DNA of 64,000 nt from Candidatus Latescibacterota bacterium. Lineage in GTDB: Bacteria; Latescibacterota; UBA2968. The translations under genes and the position numbers were made by a program. The DNA lies in the NCBI GenBank assembly GCA_965204745.1, contig OZ242010.1:32001-96000 (forward strand), given 5' to 3'. Positions 8,608-64,000 of the stretch are shown here, in pieces. The notes below the pieces were generated by a model, which had not been told where the DNA came from, searched no databases, and saw only the letters and a program-made list of their open reading frames with translations. How positions within the stretch are numbered: position 1 is the stretch's first letter; every line of letters begins with the position of its first letter.

Positions 8608-9933
8608 ATGCCTACGGACCTGTCTGAACACATCGCGCAAACCGCTTTGTGCGATACGCACGAGCATCTGCGGCGAGAACGGGATTGGACCGATGAGGGG
8701 CCGGATATTTTGCAGGACCTGTTTGGCAATTACGTGCCCGCGGATCTGATTGCGGCCGGGGCGTCGCCGCAGGCCCTGAGACGCCTTACCGATGCCTCTG
8801 ACCCGGATTTGGTCGGGCGGTTGCAAGGGATAAGGGCAGCGTGGGAGGCCACGCAATACACGGGATACGGCGAGGCGGTGCGACGCATGGTCACGGATGT
8901 GTACGGGTTTGACGAGTTCACGCCGGATGTGCTCGCGCCCGCGCAGGAAAAGTTGAGGGCATTTCGCAAGCCCGGGGGACGGTACGAGTTGTTGCGCGAG
9001 GTCGCCAATCTCGATCACGTTCAAACCGATGATTTTTCTTGGCCGTGCCCGCCGGACGAATCCGGCCCGGCGTTCTTTTTGTACGACCTGTCGTGGGCGG
9101 GGTTTTGCAACGGGCAGATCGATCAAAAAGCCATTGCCGAAGACACGGGCATCGCGGTCGTGGATCTCGATTCGCTGCAAAAAGCAATGGCGGCCATTTT
9201 TGAAAAACACGCGCCTTATGCGATTGCGGTGAAGGCCCAACACGCGTACAACCGCACCTTGAAGTGGCAGGCGCGTGCGCGGGGGGATGCAGAACGCGCC
9301 TTGTACGCCGCCCTCGCGTCCAACAACGAGGTTTCCGAATCGCTGCGGTTGTGCCTCGGCGACTGGTGCTGGGCACGCGGCGTGGAACTCGCGATAGAAC
9401 ACAATTTGCCCTTCAAACTCCACACGGGCTATTACGCCGGCAACAACCGCATGCCGGTGGATCGCATCAAAGCGGGCAATCTGTGCGGGCTTTTGGCCCA
9501 ATACCTCGACGCGCGGTTCGTGCTGATGCACATTGCCTATCCGTACAGCGATGAGCTCATCGCATTGACCAAGCACTACAAAAATGTCTGGGCAGATCTG
9601 TGTTGGGCGTGGTCAATTAACCCTTACGCTTCGGGCGATTTTGTGCGCCGCTTTATCCACGCCGCGCCCATCAACAAGCTCTTTGTGTTTGGCGGGGATA
9701 CGCGCTGGCCCACCAGTGCCGCGGCCTACGCATTTCAAACGCGCTTCTGGCTCACCAAGACCCTCGAGGCCGAGGTCGCTGAAGGCTATCTCACCGAATC
9801 CCAGGCCATGCACGTTGCGTCCTGTATGATGCGCGACAATCAGTACGCATGCTTTGACCTCGAAGGCACGCGCAACGCGATTAAAGCATCCACAGATACC
9901 GGTGGGGATACGGCCCCTGTGCCCGTCCAATGA
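8608..9933 (+). CDS. Amidohydrolase family protein
   Basis: DTHEH, LHTGY, LMHIAYPY and FGGD metal-binding motifs. Confidence 0.88.
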   Translation: MPTDLSEHIAQTALCDTHEHLRRERDWTDEGPDILQDLFGNYVPADLIAAGASPQALRRLTDASDPDLVGRLQGIRAAWEATQYTGYGEAVRRMVTDVYGFDEFTPDVLAPAQEKLRAFRKPGGRYELLREVANLDHVQTDDFSWPCPPDESGPAFFLYDLSWAGFCNGQIDQKAIAEDTGIAVVDLDSLQKAMAAIFEKHAPYAIAVKAQHAYNRTLKWQARARGDAERALYAALASNNEVSESLRLCLGDWCWARGVELAIEHNLPFKLHTGYYAGNNRMPVDRIKAGNLCGLLAQYLDARFVLMHIAYPYSDELIALTKHYKNVWADLCWAWSINPYASGDFVRRFIHAAPINKLFVFGGDTRWPTSAAAYAFQTRFWLTKTLEAEVAEGYLTESQAMHVASCMMRDNQYACFDLEGTRNAIKASTDTGGDTAPVPVQ

Positions 9934-9986
9934 GGCAGATGCGGACGACTAATCAAACTGAGATAAAAGCCCACAGAAAGCCCACA

Positions 9987-10907
9987 ATGCCCCCAATAGT
10001 CATTTCCACCTGGCGATTTGGCCTCGCTGCCAATCAACCCGCATGGGACATTTTGAAAAGCGGTGGTTCCGCGCTCGACGCGGTCATTCAAGGGGTTGAA
10101 GTGGTCGAGCGCGATCCGAGGGTTCGGAGCGTTGGATACGGCGGTTATCCCAATGCCGCGGGCGAGGTCGAAGTCGATGCGGCGGTGGTCGATGGGCGCA
10201 CGCTCGGGTATGGCGCAGTGGCGGGATTGAAGCGTATTGCCACGCCCACAGCGGTGGCGCGACGGGTGATGGAGAAGACCGATCACGTATTTCTCGTGGG
10301 CGAGGGCGCGTTGCAATTTGCGCGCACACAGGGTTTTGAGGAATGCGAGATGCTGACGGCGCACGGACGAAAAGCCTGGGAAGCATGGAAAAGAGCCACA
10401 AAAGGCACAAAAGGGGTACAACTGGCGCACGGAAGAGGGCAGGCAGAGGCCCCGGCAGATGTTCACGATACCATTGGCATGATCGCGCTCGACCAACGCG
10501 GCGATCTCGCGGCGGCGTGTACCACCAGCGGCGCGGCCTTCAAGTTGCCCGGGCGCGTGGGGGATTCGCCGCTGATCGGGTCGGGCCTATACGCGGATAA
10601 TGACGCAGGCGCGGCAGTGGCCACGGGACGCGGCGAGGAGATCGTCCGCACCTGCGGGTCGTATGCTATCGTGGAACACATGCGACAAGGCAAGTCGGCC
10701 CAACGAGCGTGTGAGGCGGTCGTCCAACAACTCGTTGCGCGCGTGCCCGCGGCACAACCCCACCAAATGGCTTATATCGCGCTTGACAAGCGCGGCAACT
10801 GGGGTGCTGCGGCAGCCCGTTCTGGTTTTTTTGCGGCTGTGACGAACAACGCGGAAAATCACCTTTGCGAAAGCCGATATTTTTTTGATCGCGGCGGGAT
10901 TGTCTGA
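9987..10907 (+). CDS. N(4)-(beta-N-acetylglucosaminyl)-L-asparaginase / isoaspartyl peptidase (Ntn hydrolase)
   Basis: HDTIG autocleavage site, TTSG, GRVGDSP and ATGRGE motifs. Confidence 0.92.
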   Translation: MPPIVISTWRFGLAANQPAWDILKSGGSALDAVIQGVEVVERDPRVRSVGYGGYPNAAGEVEVDAAVVDGRTLGYGAVAGLKRIATPTAVARRVMEKTDHVFLVGEGALQFARTQGFEECEMLTAHGRKAWEAWKRATKGTKGVQLAHGRGQAEAPADVHDTIGMIALDQRGDLAAACTTSGAAFKLPGRVGDSPLIGSGLYADNDAGAAVATGRGEEIVRTCGSYAIVEHMRQGKSAQRACEAVVQQLVARVPAAQPHQMAYIALDKRGNWGAAAARSGFFAAVTNNAENHLCESRYFFDRGGIV

Positions 10908-11752: not shown

Positions 11753-11933
11753 ATGTTAAAATCAGTGGTCAGTGGTCAGTGGTCAGTTGAATCGAGTGGT
11801 TTTGCGAGGGGGACCTACCCCCTAACCCCCTTCCTAAGAGGAAGGGGGAACGGTGATGGGTCTTCCGAGGGATTGCTCGAGAGGTTTTTTGGGTTCTATG
11901 GCGTGATCCATTCGCCCAAACCCACCAAAAGAG

Positions 11934-12434
11934 CTTTACTCCCCTTTCCTCGTAGGAAAGGGGCCGGGGGATAGGTCCCCTCGGTAACGCCATCAGAGCA
12001 ACCAGAGCGAGAAGCCATCAAAGGAGCTTTACTCCCCTTTCCTCGTAGGAAAGGGGCCGGGGGATAGGTCCCCTCGGTCAACGCCATCAGAGCAACCAGA
12101 GCGAGAAGCCATCAAAGGAGCTTTACTCCCCTTTCCTTGTAGGAAAGGGGCCGGGGGATAGGTCCCCTCGGTCAACGCCATCAAAAGAACTTTACTCCCC
12201 TTTCCTCGTAGGAAAGGGGCCGGGGGATAGGTCCCCTTGGTCAACGCCACCAAAAGAGCTTTACTCCCCTTTCCTCGTAGGAAAGGGGCCGGGGGATAGG
12301 TCCCCTTGGTCAACGCCATCAGAGCAACCAACGCTAGAAGCCATCAAAGGAGCTTTACTCCCCTTTCCTCGTAGGCACAGGCGTAGCCTACAATGAGCGA
12401 AGCGAATAACGGGGCCGGGGGATAGGTCCCCTCG
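11934..12434 (+). repeat. Tandem cluster of REP-like palindromic units
   Basis: Core CTTTACTCCCCTTTCCTCGTAGGAAAGGGGCCGGGGGATAGGTCCCC starts at 11934, 12027, 12121, 12190, 12259 and 12353. Periods are 93/94/69/69/94 and the linkers are repeated, not unique. Confidence 0.92.
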
Positions 12435-12495
12435 CGCTTTGATGAACTGTTGACGCAGTTGTACCCCGTTCCCGCTAATTGACGGAGGCTATCCG

Positions 12496-13713
12496 GTGAA
12501 TGCACAACGCAAAATTTCGCGTCCATTGTCGATACTTGTCGGCTGTCTGCTCGTCGCACTGCTGAGTGTCGCATCAGCAGAGGCGCAAAACGTTTCGGTT
12601 TCCGATTACAGAGTGCCCGTGAGCCGGGCGGACAACCTGCGGATTGACGCCTTGAGTTTTAATTTTACGACTGTGGATGATGAGATCGTCACCGAACAGG
12701 GCAATGTCGGGATCGTGTACAAAAAGTTTTACAGTTCTCTGCCCTTTGCATATTCTATTGACGCGGTCGGTTCAGCCTCATACATCCGCGAACTCGAATC
12801 TACGCCCAACCCCGATGGCACTTATGGCTCCCACCGCAATGGCACGTATGACTTCTCGCTCGATATGCGGGTTCAGAAGTATTTTGTGGAGACCAACGAG
12901 TTTTTCTATTCGATCAGCCCAGACATTTTGGATAGCAGAGGCTTTGAGCGACCGCAAATAGATGTCGTTGTCGGCCTTGGGTATGGCCGCTTTATCAATG
13001 CCACCGCTTTGCGTAAAGCCGTGCGTATCGAAGAATTTTTGTTCAGAGAAGGCGTGATTAGTGATCACATGCCCAAAGACACGATGATCGATTTGGGACA
13101 CACGATAGAAAAAGAGGACGAGTACCGCGATCTGTACGGGGATCGTTCCTATCAGAACTATTGGTATGAGGATATGACCAATGAGATCAACAAGACCGGG
13201 CTCGTGACCGGGGGCGGCAATATCGGGCCTATCGGCATTTTTCGGATGCGCGAAGTGCTCACGCAAGAGCAGATCAGCGACCGCTTTTTTGGTTGGGATG
13301 CCAATGTAGGGCTTCAGTATCAAATCCAGACGCAAGCGAAAGCCATAAAACGCCCTCCCCTTGCCCTCGCCATTAGTTTGCGGTATTCCCGCCCCATCAG
13401 TTGGCGGATGCAAATTAACACCCGATTCACATCTGATACCCCATTCGAGGATTTGGGTCGCGTGTATAACGCCCGGCAGAATATCGACTTTATCTATGAA
13501 ATCACGAACAAAATTGCCTTTGTCACATCCAATACATTTTATTTGGAAAAAAAAGCCCAGCAAGAGGTTAGGTTGCGGTATGTTTCAAATATCAGTTTCA
13601 CATTTTTTGTGGAGAACAAAATCAATTTGTCGATCATCGAGCAACTTTCAAAAAATCAAGGAGCATCGTTTAGGCAGAGTTTGCATCTCGGCCTGAGCTA
13701 TCGCATTTTTTGA
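12496..13713 (+). CDS. Exported hypothetical protein, probable outer-membrane beta-barrel
   Basis: Signal peptide, amphipathic beta-strand pattern and C-terminal LGLSYRIF. Confidence 0.6.
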   Translation: MNAQRKISRPLSILVGCLLVALLSVASAEAQNVSVSDYRVPVSRADNLRIDALSFNFTTVDDEIVTEQGNVGIVYKKFYSSLPFAYSIDAVGSASYIRELESTPNPDGTYGSHRNGTYDFSLDMRVQKYFVETNEFFYSISPDILDSRGFERPQIDVVVGLGYGRFINATALRKAVRIEEFLFREGVISDHMPKDTMIDLGHTIEKEDEYRDLYGDRSYQNYWYEDMTNEINKTGLVTGGGNIGPIGIFRMREVLTQEQISDRFFGWDANVGLQYQIQTQAKAIKRPPLALAISLRYSRPISWRMQINTRFTSDTPFEDLGRVYNARQNIDFIYEITNKIAFVTSNTFYLEKKAQQEVRLRYVSNISFTFFVENKINLSIIEQLSKNQGASFRQSLHLGLSYRIF

Positions 13714-59500: not shown

Positions 59501-60939
59501 CTAAACAGCCCGTAAAGCCCCCATGCTTCAGCAGGAGGATATAGTGTGGCTCTGCCGCAGGCTTTAGCCCTACAAACTTTTTTTTAACAAAATGCTATCC
59601 GCAGTCGTCAAAGTAGTGTCCTCTAAAGCAAAAGCCCTTTTTTATCTGACCTACGCCCGTTTGCGGACAAGGCTTTTGCTTTGAGGACAACCGCAAGCGG
59701 GCTTTGTTTTGGTAAAAAAATGGGCTATCAAACCTACAAATTCAAGTTGTACGACAACAAGCGACGCAATGCGTTTTTGCAGGAGCGTATCTCCGCTTTT
59801 GCGCCCGTGTATAACCACATGCTTGCTTTGCGTAGCCGGTACTATCGCAGATACGGTAAAGGGCTTTCTAAAAGCCAAATGCAAGCGCACCTGACCAAGT
59901 TAAAAAAGACACAACGATTTGCATGGTGAAATACGCTCCCCAGCCAAGCATTGCAAAATGTCGTTGAACGTATTTGCTTTGGCTACGACAAGTTTTTTGC
60001 AGGACAGAACAAGCGGTTGCCGAAGTTTCGTAGTTGGTTCAAGTACAAATCGTACACGCTCAAACAAACGGGCTACGAATTTCTTGACGGCAATCGTATT
60101 GAACTTGCGTTTGGCGTGCGTGGGCGTGTTAAGCGTGTGGTCAAGTATTTCAAGCATCGAGAATTTGATGCTAAAAGTGTCAAGACGGTCACGGTCATGC
60201 GTGACCGTGCAGGCGATATTTGGTTGTGCATCACGGCATTGTTTGATCGTGAGCCAAAAGTTGTATTTAAGACGGGCAAAACCGCAGGATTTGACTTTGG
60301 GCTCAAGCAATATCTCACTGTGTCCGACGGTACAACGCATGATTCGCCTTTGTTTTTTAAGCGCGGTATTCGCAAGGTCAAAAACGCCAACCGTGACTTG
60401 TCTCGCAAGCAAAAGCACAGCAATAATTGCGGGCGGGCCCGTCTCAACTTGGCGCGTGTCCATCGCAAAGTTGCAAACGCAAGAGAGAACCACCACTGGC
60501 AACTTGCAAATGAACTGTGCAAAAAGTATGACGTGCTTTGCTTTGAGATGTTGAACCTTCAAGGGATGAAAAAACTTTGGGGGCGAAAAGTCTCGGATTT
60601 GGGCTTTGCAGACTTTTTGCAAAAGTTGCAATGGGTTGCACAAAAGCACGGCAAAGTTGTTCAGTTCATCGACAAGTGGTATCCGTCAAGCAAGATGTGT
60701 AACGCTTGCGGGACGGTCAATAAGACCTTGCACCTGCGAGACCGTGTGTTCAACTGCAAATGCGGTTGGACATGTGACCGAGACTATAACGCCGCGCTTA
60801 ATATCCACAAGGTTGGGGAGACAACCTTTGCAGGAGAGACCGTAAGACGCTTGTCTGCATGAAGGCGCAGTCTTGTCGATAGCACAACCTACGCTGAAGT
60901 GGGGCTGATGCCCTGATGCTTCAGCGCGGGGTTCTTCAC
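59501..60939 (+). mobile_element. IS200/IS605-family element, tnpB only (IS1341-like, non-autonomous)
   Basis: Left end TTAC|...AAAG-CCCC..GCTTCAGC..GG and right end GATG-CCC..GCTTCAGC..GGGG..TCAC|; no tnpA seen. Confidence 0.85.
59720..60862 (+). pseudogene. tnpB: RNA-guided endonuclease TnpB with in-frame TGA at 59927-59929
   Basis: TYKFKLY N-terminus; RuvC GFDFG, FEML and DRDYNAALNI; zinc finger CNAC..CKCG. ORFs 59681 and 59951 share one frame. Confidence 0.9.
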
Positions 60940-61020: not shown

Positions 61021-62208
61021 ATGCGTAGAAAAATGATCCTCCCCGTCTTGACCGCGCTGATGCCCATTTTGGCATACGCGCAATCCAATGTCGATATCGA
61101 CTTCGACGACAATGGCGTCGTTGACTTCCGCGATTTTTTGGCCTTAGTGCAAGCCTTTGGCTCGGACCAAGAACCGTATGACCTGCACCCGGATGGCGTG
61201 GTTGATTTCAAAGATTTCCTCATTTTCGCAGAGGCTTATGGTCAGCGAGACACGTCTGCGGCCGGCCCGGTTACCGAGCGGGTCGATGAGCGAGAAGCCT
61301 CTGCTCAGGTCGAGTTCTTTGAACTGTCGACGAACAGCCGCCCAAACGATTTGGCGGTTGACCCGCGAGGATATGTATGGTTCACAGAAATGGGCACGAA
61401 TGCGATTGGTCGCTTAGAGTCGAGCACGGGAGAGATTGACCGATTTCCTCTGACCACGCCCGGAGCGCAACCGCACAGCATCGTTTTGGGCAACCGAGGG
61501 CGCGTGTGGTTCACGGAAGTTGTCGCCAATCGCATCGGTCGCCTGGATTCCTTCTCTGACGAGATCCAGACCTTCACGATCCCAACCCCGGGCAGCCGGC
61601 CCACGAGTTTGCGTTTTGACGATCAAGACATGCTCTGGTTTATCGCGAGTGCCGCGGATCACATTGGCCGGTTGAATCCCACCACCGGGGCGATTGACGA
61701 ATTTCCGATCAGTGATCGAGATGTCGAGCTTTCGCAACTTCAGATCGGTCAAAATGGGCAACTCTGGTTCGCGGATCAGGTGCGAGATCAGTTGGGGATG
61801 CTCAACCCCACCAACGGACAAGTGATGACCTTCGAGCTTCCAAACGGCGGTCTCGACCTTGGGCAAATGGCATTGGCTTCAGATGGTCGGGTGTGGTTTG
61901 TAGATACGCATTTGCGAAGGCTGGGCATGTTTGATCCCGCCAATAGCCAGACGCGCTTTTTTCAGTTGCCCACAAAAATGAGATCCCCTTCTGCTTTGCA
62001 CGTCGATATGAATGACCGCGTCTGGATCGGTGGGCGGTTGTCGAAATGGTTGGTCAATTTTGATTGGCAAGATCAAAAGTTCACGGTTTACGAACTTCCC
62101 GATTCGAGAATTGCAGTCGAAAATTTGCGCGTTGACCGCACGGGGGTTGTCTGGCTCGTCGATTCAGTCGGAAATCGGATTGTACGCATTGAAACGCCGC
62201 ATTTTTGA
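61021..62208 (+). CDS. Secreted dockerin/EF-hand-like pair fused to Vgb-lyase-like beta-propeller
   Basis: Signal peptide; DFDDNGVVDFRDFL and DLHPDGVVDFKDFL; about 7 blades of the form P..L..D..G.VWF. Confidence 0.8.
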   Translation: MRRKMILPVLTALMPILAYAQSNVDIDFDDNGVVDFRDFLALVQAFGSDQEPYDLHPDGVVDFKDFLIFAEAYGQRDTSAAGPVTERVDEREASAQVEFFELSTNSRPNDLAVDPRGYVWFTEMGTNAIGRLESSTGEIDRFPLTTPGAQPHSIVLGNRGRVWFTEVVANRIGRLDSFSDEIQTFTIPTPGSRPTSLRFDDQDMLWFIASAADHIGRLNPTTGAIDEFPISDRDVELSQLQIGQNGQLWFADQVRDQLGMLNPTNGQVMTFELPNGGLDLGQMALASDGRVWFVDTHLRRLGMFDPANSQTRFFQLPTKMRSPSALHVDMNDRVWIGGRLSKWLVNFDWQDQKFTVYELPDSRIAVENLRVDRTGVVWLVDSVGNRIVRIETPHF

Positions 62209-62239: not shown

Positions 62240-62485
62240 ATGGCTACTCTGACGTTTGATACCCATGCCTTTGTCAAGGAACTGACGCAGGCCGGGATGC
62301 CTGAAGAACAAGCCGAAGTGCTGGCGCGGTCTCAAGCCGCATTGATTGATGAAAAGCTGGCGACCAAGCGGGATTTGAAAGAACTGGAATTGCGGTTGAA
62401 GCACGACCTGACATTGCGGCTCGGCTCGATGATGGTCGTCGCTATCGGCGTGGTTGTTGCTTTGGTGAAACTTCTGTCAGGGTGA
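62240..62485 (+). CDS. DUF1640/CCDC90-like coiled-coil membrane protein, copy 1 (81 aa)
   Basis: FDTHAFVKEL..AGMPEEQAE head, LATKxD neck, short stalk and C-terminal TM helix; GGAGG RBS. Confidence 0.88.
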   Translation: MATLTFDTHAFVKELTQAGMPEEQAEVLARSQAALIDEKLATKRDLKELELRLKHDLTLRLGSMMVVAIGVVVALVKLLSG

Positions 62486-62551
62486 TTCTATCTAAACTGC
62501 TGAGTTCGGTCGTACTGTGCTGATGTTCATTTTTTTCAACTGGAGGATTTT

Positions 62552-62830
62552 ATGGCTACTCTGACGTTTGATACCCATGCTTTTGTCAAAGAACTGACGC
62601 GGGCCGGGATGCCGGAAGAACAAGCCGAAGTGCTGGCGCGGTCTCAAGCGACGTTGATTGATGAAAAGCTGGCAACCAAACAGGACTTGAAGGAACTGGA
62701 ATTGCGGTTGAAACGCGATATACAGGAGATGGAATTGCGGCTGAAGCACGATATGACCGTACGTCTCGGCTCGATGATGGTGGTTGCTATCGGCGTGGTT
62801 GCCGCTTTGGTGAAACTTCTGTCAGGGTGA
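62552..62830 (+). CDS. DUF1640/CCDC90-like protein, copy 2 (92 aa)
   Basis: As copy 1 plus one 11-aa stalk module. Confidence 0.88.
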   Translation: MATLTFDTHAFVKELTRAGMPEEQAEVLARSQATLIDEKLATKQDLKELELRLKRDIQEMELRLKHDMTVRLGSMMVVAIGVVAALVKLLSG

Positions 62831-62894
62831 TTCTATCTAAACTGCTGGGTTTGGTCGTATTGTGCTGATGTTCATTTCTCACCTGGAGGATTTT

Positions 62895-63227
62895 ATGGCT
62901 ACTCTGACGTTTGATACCCATGCTTTTGTCAAGGAACTGACGCAGGCCGGGATGCCGGAAGAACAGGCCGAGGTGCTGGCGCGGTCTCAAGCGACGTTGA
63001 TTGACGAAAAACTGGCGACGAAACAGGACTTGAAGGAACTGGAATTGCGGTTGAAACGCGATATACAGGAATTGAAGCGCGATATGAAAGAACTGGAGAC
63101 GCGATTGACCCGCGACATGCAGGAGATGGAATTGCGGCTGAAGCACGACTTGACCGTGCGACTCGGCTCGATGATGGTGGTTGCTATCGGCGTGGTTGCT
63201 GCTTTGGTGAAACTTCTGTCAGGGTGA
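62895..63227 (+). CDS. DUF1640/CCDC90-like protein, copy 3 (110 aa)
   Basis: As copy 1 plus 7+11+11 aa. Confidence 0.88.
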   Translation: MATLTFDTHAFVKELTQAGMPEEQAEVLARSQATLIDEKLATKQDLKELELRLKRDIQELKRDMKELETRLTRDMQEMELRLKHDLTVRLGSMMVVAIGVVAALVKLLSG

Positions 63228-63293
63228 TCCTATCTAAACTGCTGGGTTTGGTCGTATTGTGCTGATGTTCACTTTTCTCGACTGGAGGATTTT

Positions 63294-63692
63294 ATGGCTA
63301 CTCTGACGTTTGATACCCACGCCTTTGTCAAGGAACTGACGCAGGCCGGGATGCCGGAAGAACAAGCCGAAGTGCTGGCGCGATCTCAAGCGACGTTGAT
63401 TGACGAAAAGCTGGCGACGAAACAGGACTTGAAGGAACTGGAATTGCGGTTGAAACGCGATATACAGGAATTGAAACGTGATATGAAAGAACTGGAGACG
63501 CGATTGGTACGCGACATGCAGGAAATGGAAGCCAATCTCAAACGCGATATGAAAGAATTGGAAATGCGTTTGACCCGCGACATGCAAGAGATGGAATTGC
63601 GGTTGAAGCACGACTTGACCGTGCGTCTCGGCTCGATGATGGTGGTTGCTATCGGCGTGGTTGCCGCTTTGGTGAAACTTCTGTCAGGGTGA
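63294..63692 (+). CDS. DUF1640/CCDC90-like protein, copy 4 (132 aa)
   Basis: As copy 1 plus 7+4x11 aa. Confidence 0.88.
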   Translation: MATLTFDTHAFVKELTQAGMPEEQAEVLARSQATLIDEKLATKQDLKELELRLKRDIQELKRDMKELETRLVRDMQEMEANLKRDMKELEMRLTRDMQEMELRLKHDLTVRLGSMMVVAIGVVAALVKLLSG

Positions 63693-63756
63693 TCCTATCT
63701 AAACTGCTGAGTTTGGTCGTATTGTGCTGATGTTCATTTTTCGACTGGAGGATTTT

Positions 63757-64000
63757 ATGGCTACTCTGACGTTTGATACCCATGCCTTTGTCAAGGAACT
63801 GACGCAGGCCGGGATGCCGGAAGAACAAGCCGAGGTGCTGGCGCGATCTCAAGCGATGTTGATTGACGAAAAACTGGCGACGAAACAGGACTTGAAGGAA
63901 CTGGAATTGCGTCTGAAACGCGATATACAGGAATTGAAGCGCGATATGAAAGAATTGGAAATGCGATTGACACGCGACATGCAAGAAATGGAATTGCGGT
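63757..64000 (+). CDS. DUF1640/CCDC90-like protein, copy 5 (truncated by window end)
   Basis: Same RBS and head. Stalk reads RDIQELK-RDMKELEMRLT-RDMQEMELR at the window edge. Confidence 0.85.
   Translation, partial: MATLTFDTHAFVKELTQAGMPEEQAEVLARSQAMLIDEKLATKQDLKELELRLKRDIQELKRDMKELEMRLTRDMQEMELR

Follow-up and report, generated by a model that had tools for sequence, protein, structure and literature searches.

Proteins of the DUF1640 or CCDC90-like family are conserved from bacteria to human mitochondria, and their molecular role is still debated. The eukaryotic members (human MCUR1, CCDC90B, and the yeast homologs) are encoded by single genes or pairs, with reported roles as a uniporter scaffold and in proline and amino-acid metabolism. 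The prokaryotic homologs of DUF1640 were reportedly described by Adlakha and colleagues in 2019 (in Structure) as trimeric head-neck-stalk-anchor proteins. Here we analyze a stretch of 64,000 nucleotides (nt) from a Candidatus Latescibacterota bacterium (NCBI GenBank assembly GCA_965204745.1, contig OZ242010.1), corresponding to bases 32001-96000 of a single-contig genome of 5.48 Mb and called the window throughout. At its far end begins a tandem array of eight genes of this family, encoding the same head, neck, and membrane anchor on stalks of several lengths. The array is real and unusually large, and graded in length, within a family that is already known.

The array proteins resemble MCUR1, CCDC90B, and the yeast homologs in their FDTHA[FL]V head, beta-layer neck, coiled-coil stalk, and single C-terminal membrane helix. 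They are much smaller than the profile of the family in Pfam, PF07798 (81-143 amino acids (aa) vs 175 positions), and their stalks consist almost purely of hendecads. Unlike the eukaryotic single genes and pairs, moreover, the genes come in 8-16 tandem copies of graded length in what is probably one transcription unit, and the roles reported for the eukaryotic proteins have no obvious counterpart here.

The closest older analogue is found in the Bdr proteins of Borrelia. These are likewise encoded by many paralogs and combine a short N-terminal domain, 11-residue-type repeats that vary in number, and a C-terminal hydrophobic tail; for bdrT, about 9 vs 6 repeats are reported (PMC3303823). In contrast to the array genes, which stand in tandem in a probable single operon, bdr genes lie scattered over prophage-like plasmids. 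Moreover, the Bdr protein of cp32-1 matches the KID repeat family PF02524 (70.6 bits) and is not listed under PF07798, while PF02524 is absent from the Pfam matches of array copies 1-4. It has neither the FDTHAF head nor the LATK neck, and its similarity to the array (22% identity, E 2e-4) is weak and coiled-coil-like. On these grounds, Bdr was rejected as a member of the family. In Braun's lipoprotein Lpp and in the stalks of trimeric autotransporters, too, a distance from a membrane is fixed by how long a trimeric coiled coil is. These proteins act in the periplasm or at the cell surface and are encoded by single genes, with one length per strain; the analogy is functional only. Beta-layer necks occur in the stalks of trimeric autotransporters as well (PMC4786415).

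The array runs along the forward strand over window-equivalent positions 62240-65418; the window end cuts it inside copy 5, leaving 4.6 copies within the window. In order, the copies encode proteins of 81, 92, 110, 132, 110, 110, 143, and 121 aa (6 distinct lengths among 8). Start codons inside the window lie at 62240, 62552, 62895, 63294, and 63757, and the ATG of each copy is preceded by GGAGG, 6-7 nt upstream. Every protein opens with a head of 39 residues, MATLTFDTHAFVKELTQAGMPEEQAEVLARSQA.LIDEK, with the near-invariant core MATLTFDTHAFVKELTQAGMPEEQAEVLARSQ, followed by the neck LATK[QR]D, which is present in all eight copies. The stalk is then assembled from an 11-residue module, D-[LMI]-[KQ]-E-[LM]-E-x-[RN]-L-x-[RH], and a 7-residue module, DIQELKR, which is used at most once per copy: copies 1 and 2 lack it, copies 3, 4, 5, and 7 have it in second place, and copies 6 and 8 in third. 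The C-terminal tail reads D[LM]T[LV]RLGSMMVVAIGVVAALVKLLSG, and a hydrophobic stretch of 19 residues, LGSMMVVAIGVVAALVKLL, ends 0-2 residues before the C-terminus in every copy. The first module, the last module, the neck, and the anchor are nearly identical in all eight copies.

Copy 1 (62240..62485, 81 aa) carries a LATKR neck and one 11-residue module between head and anchor, and scores 27.5 bits against PF07798. It is the most divergent of the eight, with a number of synonymous substitutions per site (dS) of about 0.37-0.49 to the others, and is 90-93% identical to single 79-aa genes of three congeners. Copy 2 (62552..62830, 92 aa, 29.3 bits) has two 11-residue modules, the second of which, DIQEMELRLKH, reads as a 7-residue module fused to the last module by a 21-bp deletion. 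Copy 3 (62895..63227, 110 aa, 39.5 bits) follows the order 11-7-11-11, and copy 4 (63294..63692, 132 aa, 53.2 bits), the one used for structure models, the order 11-7-11-11-11-11. Copy 5 (63757..64000, cut by the window end) is a 110-aa protein in the genome, with modules 11-7-11-11. The remaining copies lie beyond the window at window-equivalent positions 64156-64488 (copy 6, 110 aa), 64555-64986 (copy 7, 143 aa), and 65053-65418 (copy 8, 121 aa). The original prediction, made from the letters of the window, had described at least five such head-to-tail genes, each with its own GGAGG, a shared head and neck, and an anchor where visible, differing by whole modules (+11; +7+11+11; +7+4x11) to give 81, 92, 110, and 132 aa. 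These features were all verified and the module arithmetic is exact; followed past the window, the array reaches eight copies, and copy 5, guessed to return to 7+11+11, does so.

The inter-copy spacers inside the window (62486-62551, 62831-62894, 63228-63293, and 63693-63756, forward strand) measure 64-66 nt and contain the GGAGG. They are more alike (mean p 0.054) than the synonymous sites of the copies (pS 0.216), suggesting that they are either constrained or converted more often. An RNA element in the spacer was considered and ruled out, as an Rfam search gave no match at E up to 1 and the predicted folding was no better than that of shuffled sequences (z -0.37 to +0.62).

The assignment to the DUF1640/CCDC90 family, proposed earlier from the sequence, is borne out by profile and sequence matches. 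Copies 1-4 all match PF07798 in a Pfam scan, copies 3 and 4 above its gathering cut-off of 33.5 bits, and in a genome-wide search with the profile copies 3-8 reach the cut-off alone or with in-frame neighbors. NCBIfam holds no family for the array protein. Among the sequences of the Protein Data Bank (PDB), phmmer ranks human CCDC90B (6h9m) first (E 9.7e-4, residues 3-75 aligned), and the two heads share LTFDTHA-V. For the stalk start of DUF1640, Hartmann et al. (PMC4786415) give a beta-layer motif, [aliphatic]-A-T-K-[polar]-[DE], which the LATK neck of the array fits. Among 29 homologs, A41 and T42 of this neck are conserved in at least 90% and K43 is invariant. The predicted layout of head, neck, stalk, and anchor thus holds, including the beta-layer motif.

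Structure models are consistent with this layout. The monomer model of copy 4 (mean predicted local confidence, pLDDT, 93.6) consists of a helix at 8-17 and one long helix at 22-131, with the anchor helical. Modeled as three copies, the protein gives an interface score (ipSAE) of 0.75 (median of 3 runs) vs 0.00 for the best control, on a scale calibrated with two copies rather than three, where 20 of 30 solved pairs and 1 of 23 single chains attained the mark. Between runs, 96% or more of the contacts coincide, and the pLDDT of the partner does not fall below 86. In the model, the chains lie parallel and in register, with contacts from residue 40 to 131 (including the anchor) in 3-4-4 spacing, the tightest of which fall on residues 40-43, i.e., the neck. 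The model thereby supports parallel trimers, as had been claimed from knowledge of the family.

All eight frames are intact, and 49 of the 276 positions vary across the 92 codons common to all copies, to which the selection test was confined. The changes are mostly synonymous, with a pooled ratio of nonsynonymous to synonymous differences per site (pN/pS) of 0.085 and pairwise dS of 0.08-0.49. The copies are under purifying selection. Recombination has left its marks as well: of the 231 pairs formed by informative sites, 113 do not pass the four-gamete test, and 21 distinct DNA modules fill 33 slots, identical 33-nt modules sitting at different positions across copies. The copies are recombination mosaics. 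Both the intact frames with private, mostly synonymous changes and the recombination-driven diversification of length that the original prediction had put forward fit these results.

Comparison among 21 congeneric genomes, the present one included, shows how the locus has changed. A ceramidase-like gene, a beta-propeller gene resembling Vgb lyase, and an ATP-binding cassette (ABC) transporter gene form conserved flanks genus-wide, and in 17 of the 21 the propeller and transporter genes are adjacent with no DUF1640 gene between them. One congener (G001) has a single copy of 90 aa at the locus. Another, the single-contig genome G016, has 16, all with intact frames and encoding 181, 119, 90, 108, 163, 170, 152, 148, 159, 126, 141, 137, 130, 101, 130, and 112 aa. 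These represent 15 distinct lengths of 90-181 aa, which follow L = 79 + 11k + 7h, with h = 0-2. In a third (G018), no copy stands beside the transporter gene, the propeller gene was not found in the 1.5 kb fetched upstream, and a 3-copy array is carried elsewhere in the genome. At one syntenic site, copy number runs through 0, 1, 8, and 16 with other module sets, a heterogeneity between relatives that had been anticipated. Two of the G018 copies (131 and 122 aa, locus L101) contain a non-coiled stalk insert, …RSVDRPTTFAESTFRLRRQ…, followed by repeat words RQMKGMERRLR; these stalks depart from the usual module grammar, and the frames are still open.

Median dS is 0.24 within the array here, 0.16 within that of G016, and 0.47 between the two, and the nearest relative of every copy is another copy of its own genome. 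The flanking genes of both genomes differ by dS 0.20-0.55. As the within-array values are lower than the between-genome value, which matches the flanks, most amplification or homogenization postdates the species split. Nonetheless, particular architectures endure: that of copy 4 (132 aa) is kept in G016 by a 130-aa protein, 95% identical, whose modules follow the same order, and a sister assembly keeps the 143- and 110-aa architectures. Sister and near-conspecific assemblies and shorter contigs together hold near-identical proteins of 92, 99, 103, 110, 114, 121, 132, and 143 aa.

Beyond the genus, a protein database search yielded 1817 candidates, 1740 of which are homologs at E up to 1e-5, and PF07798 is carried by 117 of the 120 database homologs listed. 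A scan of named genomes returned 77 loci, and a profile of the head picked out 130 copies in them. Records labeled Binatia, Gammaproteobacteria, Versatilivoraceae, and Magnetococcales contain small arrays, whose 2-5 copies differ in length. In a sample of the phylum, PF07798 is matched in 34 of 151 genomes, mostly just once, against which the genome studied here (24), G016 (23), and G018 (13) stand out. Across many phyla, the stalk length from neck to anchor is congruent to 1, 5, or 8 mod 11 in 105 of 110 stalks. These values are the three hendecad core positions shifted by one, and lengths of this kind keep the hydrophobic seam continuous from the neck to the membrane helix, which provides a physical basis for the quantization of length. 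The heptad and hendecad steps noted at the outset are thus real, both in module arithmetic and in register.

From one phylum label to another, head and anchor retain 85-90% identity at a pS of 0.5-0.8. An identity of 85-92% among proteins of metagenome-assembled genomes (MAGs) labeled Latescibacterota, Binatia, Gammaproteobacteria, Acidobacteria, and Nitrospira had raised the suspicion of recent cross-phylum transfer. This was rejected because of the high pS, because the GC content of third codon positions (GC3) matches that of the host (~0.6 in Latescibacterota, ~0.9 in gammaproteobacterial records), and because flanks are conserved only within lineages. We read the identity as suggesting old residence under very strong constraint.

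How could such an array have come about, and what might it do? We propose that one DUF1640 gene inserted between the propeller gene and its terminator, and that unequal recombination and gene conversion, acting on whole gene units and on modules, then amplified and reshuffled it. Selection holds the copies intact and prevents the hydrophobic core from slipping out of register anywhere between neck and anchor. Each copy would be a small tail-anchored membrane protein forming a parallel trimer with a coiled-coil stalk, its heads on the cytoplasmic side and bound to one strongly conserved partner. If chains sort into trimers by length, the same head would be displayed at several fixed heights above the inner membrane face. 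At ~0.15 nm per helical residue, each 11-residue (33-bp) module would lengthen the rod by ~1.6 nm and each 7-residue (21-bp) module by ~1.0 nm. The stalks of 16-78 residues here would thus place the head an estimated ~2.4-12 nm from the membrane, and those of 27-118 residues in G016 ~4-18 nm by the same estimate. That the head faces the cytoplasm is suggested by the lack of a signal peptide, the long charged N-terminal part, and an anchor that ends 0-2 residues from the C-terminus; the mitochondrial DUF1640 homologs face the matrix. The constraint on head and anchor despite saturated silent sites argues for a conserved partner. We consider the evolutionary picture well supported; the function is inferred. 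For the proposal as a whole (a co-oriented, recombining, and selected array of eight genes for trimeric tail-anchored rods that present one head at several heights), belief and doubt are about evenly balanced. Its boldest form, in which homotrimer rods self-sort to place one head at steps of ~1-1.6 nm, recombination makes new rungs, and selection keeps those that differ, is offered only tentatively, and we think it rather unlikely.

Is graded length itself selected? Duplicates are born equal in length, yet lengths are diverse, so that length must change fast relative to sequence; the diversity alone does not prove that selection retains a length difference. Not one of 28 pairs in 12 small arrays of other lineages is equal in length. 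When lengths are shuffled among arrays with fragments removed, 4 of 176 pairs are equal vs 8.7 expected (P 0.054); for the small arrays alone P is 0.070, and for nine arrays thinned by lineage 0.19. A looser version of the test (P 0.011, 0.007) included fragments and related arrays and is not relied on. Taken together, these comparisons lend only weak support to lengths being selected to differ. Of the graded distances from the membrane that the original prediction had envisaged, the mostly distinct lengths within arrays stand; selection for them does not follow from P values of 0.05-0.19, and a length of 110 aa occurs three times among the eight copies here.

Several further points weigh against heads displayed at graded heights on trimeric rods. 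At the locus itself the array is dispensable in the 17 congeners without it, and the population includes one frameshifted copy (P0106). The two shortest copies remain under the PF07798 cut-off, because their stalks are short. In a fold search, which gave no match at E up to 0.001, Foldseek again ranks CCDC90B 6h9m first with weak values (E 0.6, template modeling score 0.29/0.37). Because CCDC90B has already been solved as a trimer, the trimer model may mirror likeness to it and not be independent support. The cytoplasmic orientation leans on the absent signal peptide and on the orientation of the mitochondrial homologs. Scans limited to consensus sites of the sigma-70 type found no promoter for the array. 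Finally, a search for a partner gene that accompanies the arrays across phyla found none; the highest-ranking clusters were shadow open reading frames over the gene itself.

The main rival is amplification for dosage, in which more protein was favored and the differences in length are a tolerated by-product of slippage that kept the register. It would readily explain the swings in copy number among congeners and the three equal copies here, it fits the non-significant test for non-redundant lengths, and the register rule would account for quantization without any need for graded heights. On the other hand, the copies have long been distinct (dS up to 0.49), unlike identical repeats of recent origin, the 16 copies of G016 come in 15 lengths, equal pairs are missing from the small arrays, and particular architectures persist across species. 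We regard dosage as quite possible, even if we lean against it. Another explanation would have the proteins play a phage-related membrane role (superinfection exclusion, abortive infection, or lysis control), with an arms race diversifying their length. The head indeed matches a phage family, phrog_17872 (E 1.3e-16), and distant homologs occur in Sodalis phage phiSG1 (56% over the head), Bordetella phages, APSE phages, and several plasmids. The flanks, by contrast, are chromosomal and syntenic across the 21 congeners, without phage genes, and it is the stalk that varies and not the head, at a low dN/dS. A known defense system was also sought in PADLOC-DB 2.0 and discarded: the 132-aa copy gave only weak, coiled-coil matches (LeoC, 20.6 bits, E 9.8e-5; LmuB, LeoBC, and LeoA weaker) and the 81-aa copy none. 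A phage-related role strikes us as improbable.

Unequal chains might also co-assemble through their identical anchor- and neck-proximal segments, yielding combinatorial hetero-trimers. Such segments exist, as first module, last module, neck, and anchor hardly differ among copies, and a preprint (bioRxiv 10.1101/2025.10.14.682030) reports a hetero-oligomer of human MCUR1 and CCDC90B. Given that the modeled trimer is parallel and in register, however, unequal chains cannot align both neck and anchor unless whole modules loop out, and we judge such mixing to be very unlikely. Least credible of all is an assembly artefact, in which one or two real genes would have been multiplied by a repeat stutter. 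Public short-read contigs do end within the array instead of spanning it, so the copy number cannot be confirmed from them, and one contig of run X7 joins L001 positions 919 and 3010 (42-letter side), which may reflect another module order or a repeat artefact. Nevertheless, the genome is a single contig, and the copies differ at many positions in a codon-aware pattern. The junction of the upstream flank with copy 1 is found in contigs from four separate studies (0-2 differences over ~460 bases), as are array fragments and module variants private to single copies. Analogous arrays, each with variants of its own, are present in a congener, in a sister assembly, and in several further lineages. 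With copies this far apart in dS, 16 different copies at the G016 locus, and the contigs of four studies, neither chance nor stutter accounts for the array.

Whichever of these explanations holds, the array amounts to an isogenic series in which the same head, neck, and anchor sit on 6 rod lengths (15 in G016), all maintained by selection. For structural biology, this supplies ready hendecad coiled coils for which the register rule has been measured (105/110), and the conserved partner, if it exists, could be fished out with any copy. Should one head indeed be held at several heights, the bacterium could position a conserved partner, or layers, at several depths under its membrane, a multi-height scaffold without described counterpart. 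To our knowledge, and as far as our literature searches reach, it would then be the first known cell to encode a graded set of spacers in one operon. In these searches, whose scope did not extend to Adlakha et al. 2019 and its supplements, no printed description of such graded-length arrays was found, in agreement with the earlier remark that no function had been described for a ladder of this kind, Borrelia Bdr being the older analogue.

Turning to the neighborhood, the propeller gene (61021..62208, forward strand; PF24684, 188 bits) lies directly upstream, and copy 1 starts 31 nt past its stop. Consensus scans, confined to sigma-70-type sites, found no promoter or terminator-like site between copies. 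Past copy 8, after 31 nt, follows a terminator hairpin with a 10-bp stem and a T-run (G000:C1:97449-97520), and after the terminator, before the transporter gene, a promoter-like site, TTGACA-17-TACTAT. This layout, with a gap of 31 nt, no internal terminator, and one terminator at the end, points to co-transcription, and the array is probably transcribed as one unit. Array-less congeners (L105-L122) have a homologous hairpin directly after the propeller gene and the same promoter-like site next to it; because the hairpin takes the same position, the array has inserted between the propeller gene and its terminator. The stems differ among congeners yet pair (GCACCC/GGGTGC, GCACTC/GAGTGC, and GCATCC/GGATGC), while TTGACA…TACTAT is nearly invariant, making the stems a natural example of compensatory change.

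The propeller protein has a hydrophobic leader and, by eye, two DxDxDGxxDxxDF-like stretches resembling dockerin or EF-hand calcium sites. Its identity to the G016 protein is 73%, vs 86-89% for the other flanking proteins. Between the ceramidase-like and propeller genes lies a gene of the TnpB/IS605 OrfB type (59951..60862, forward strand; PF07282, PF01385). It is a lineage-specific insertion, as the two genes lie ~150 bp apart in G016 without a TnpB gene. G016, in turn, has two insertion sequences between its copies, one of the IS1595/ISXO2 type with a transposase split over two frames and one of the IS4/5 type (PF13340), which occupy positions 9258-10589 and 11903-13298 of locus L099.

The PF07798 family is expanded genome-wide here, beyond the array locus. 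Further divergent genes, 25-49% identical to the array and several of them in tandem pairs or triplets, are located at about G000:C1 4076492-4077708, 2069530-2070195, 3903648-3904330, 4251812-4252849, 5034229-5034825, and 885640-886263. Elsewhere, a stretch at G000:C1:2369758-2369853, inside an open frame of 135 aa, matches the anchor end of the array proteins (residues 99-130) at 91% identity and may be the remnant of an array tail or a fusion of one. Among the homologs, P0048 and P0055 (112-123 aa) are named 'predicted phage-related endonuclease' in one source. They are too short to contain a nuclease domain, and the name was probably carried over from a coiled-coil region that, according to PMC4786415, is common to DUF1640 and the DUF3782/PD-(D/E)XK endonucleases. 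As to where these sequences recur, the public runs listed, none of them of RNA, contain 30-52% of the sampled words when labeled as sponge metagenomes and 30-54% when filed under coded organism names.

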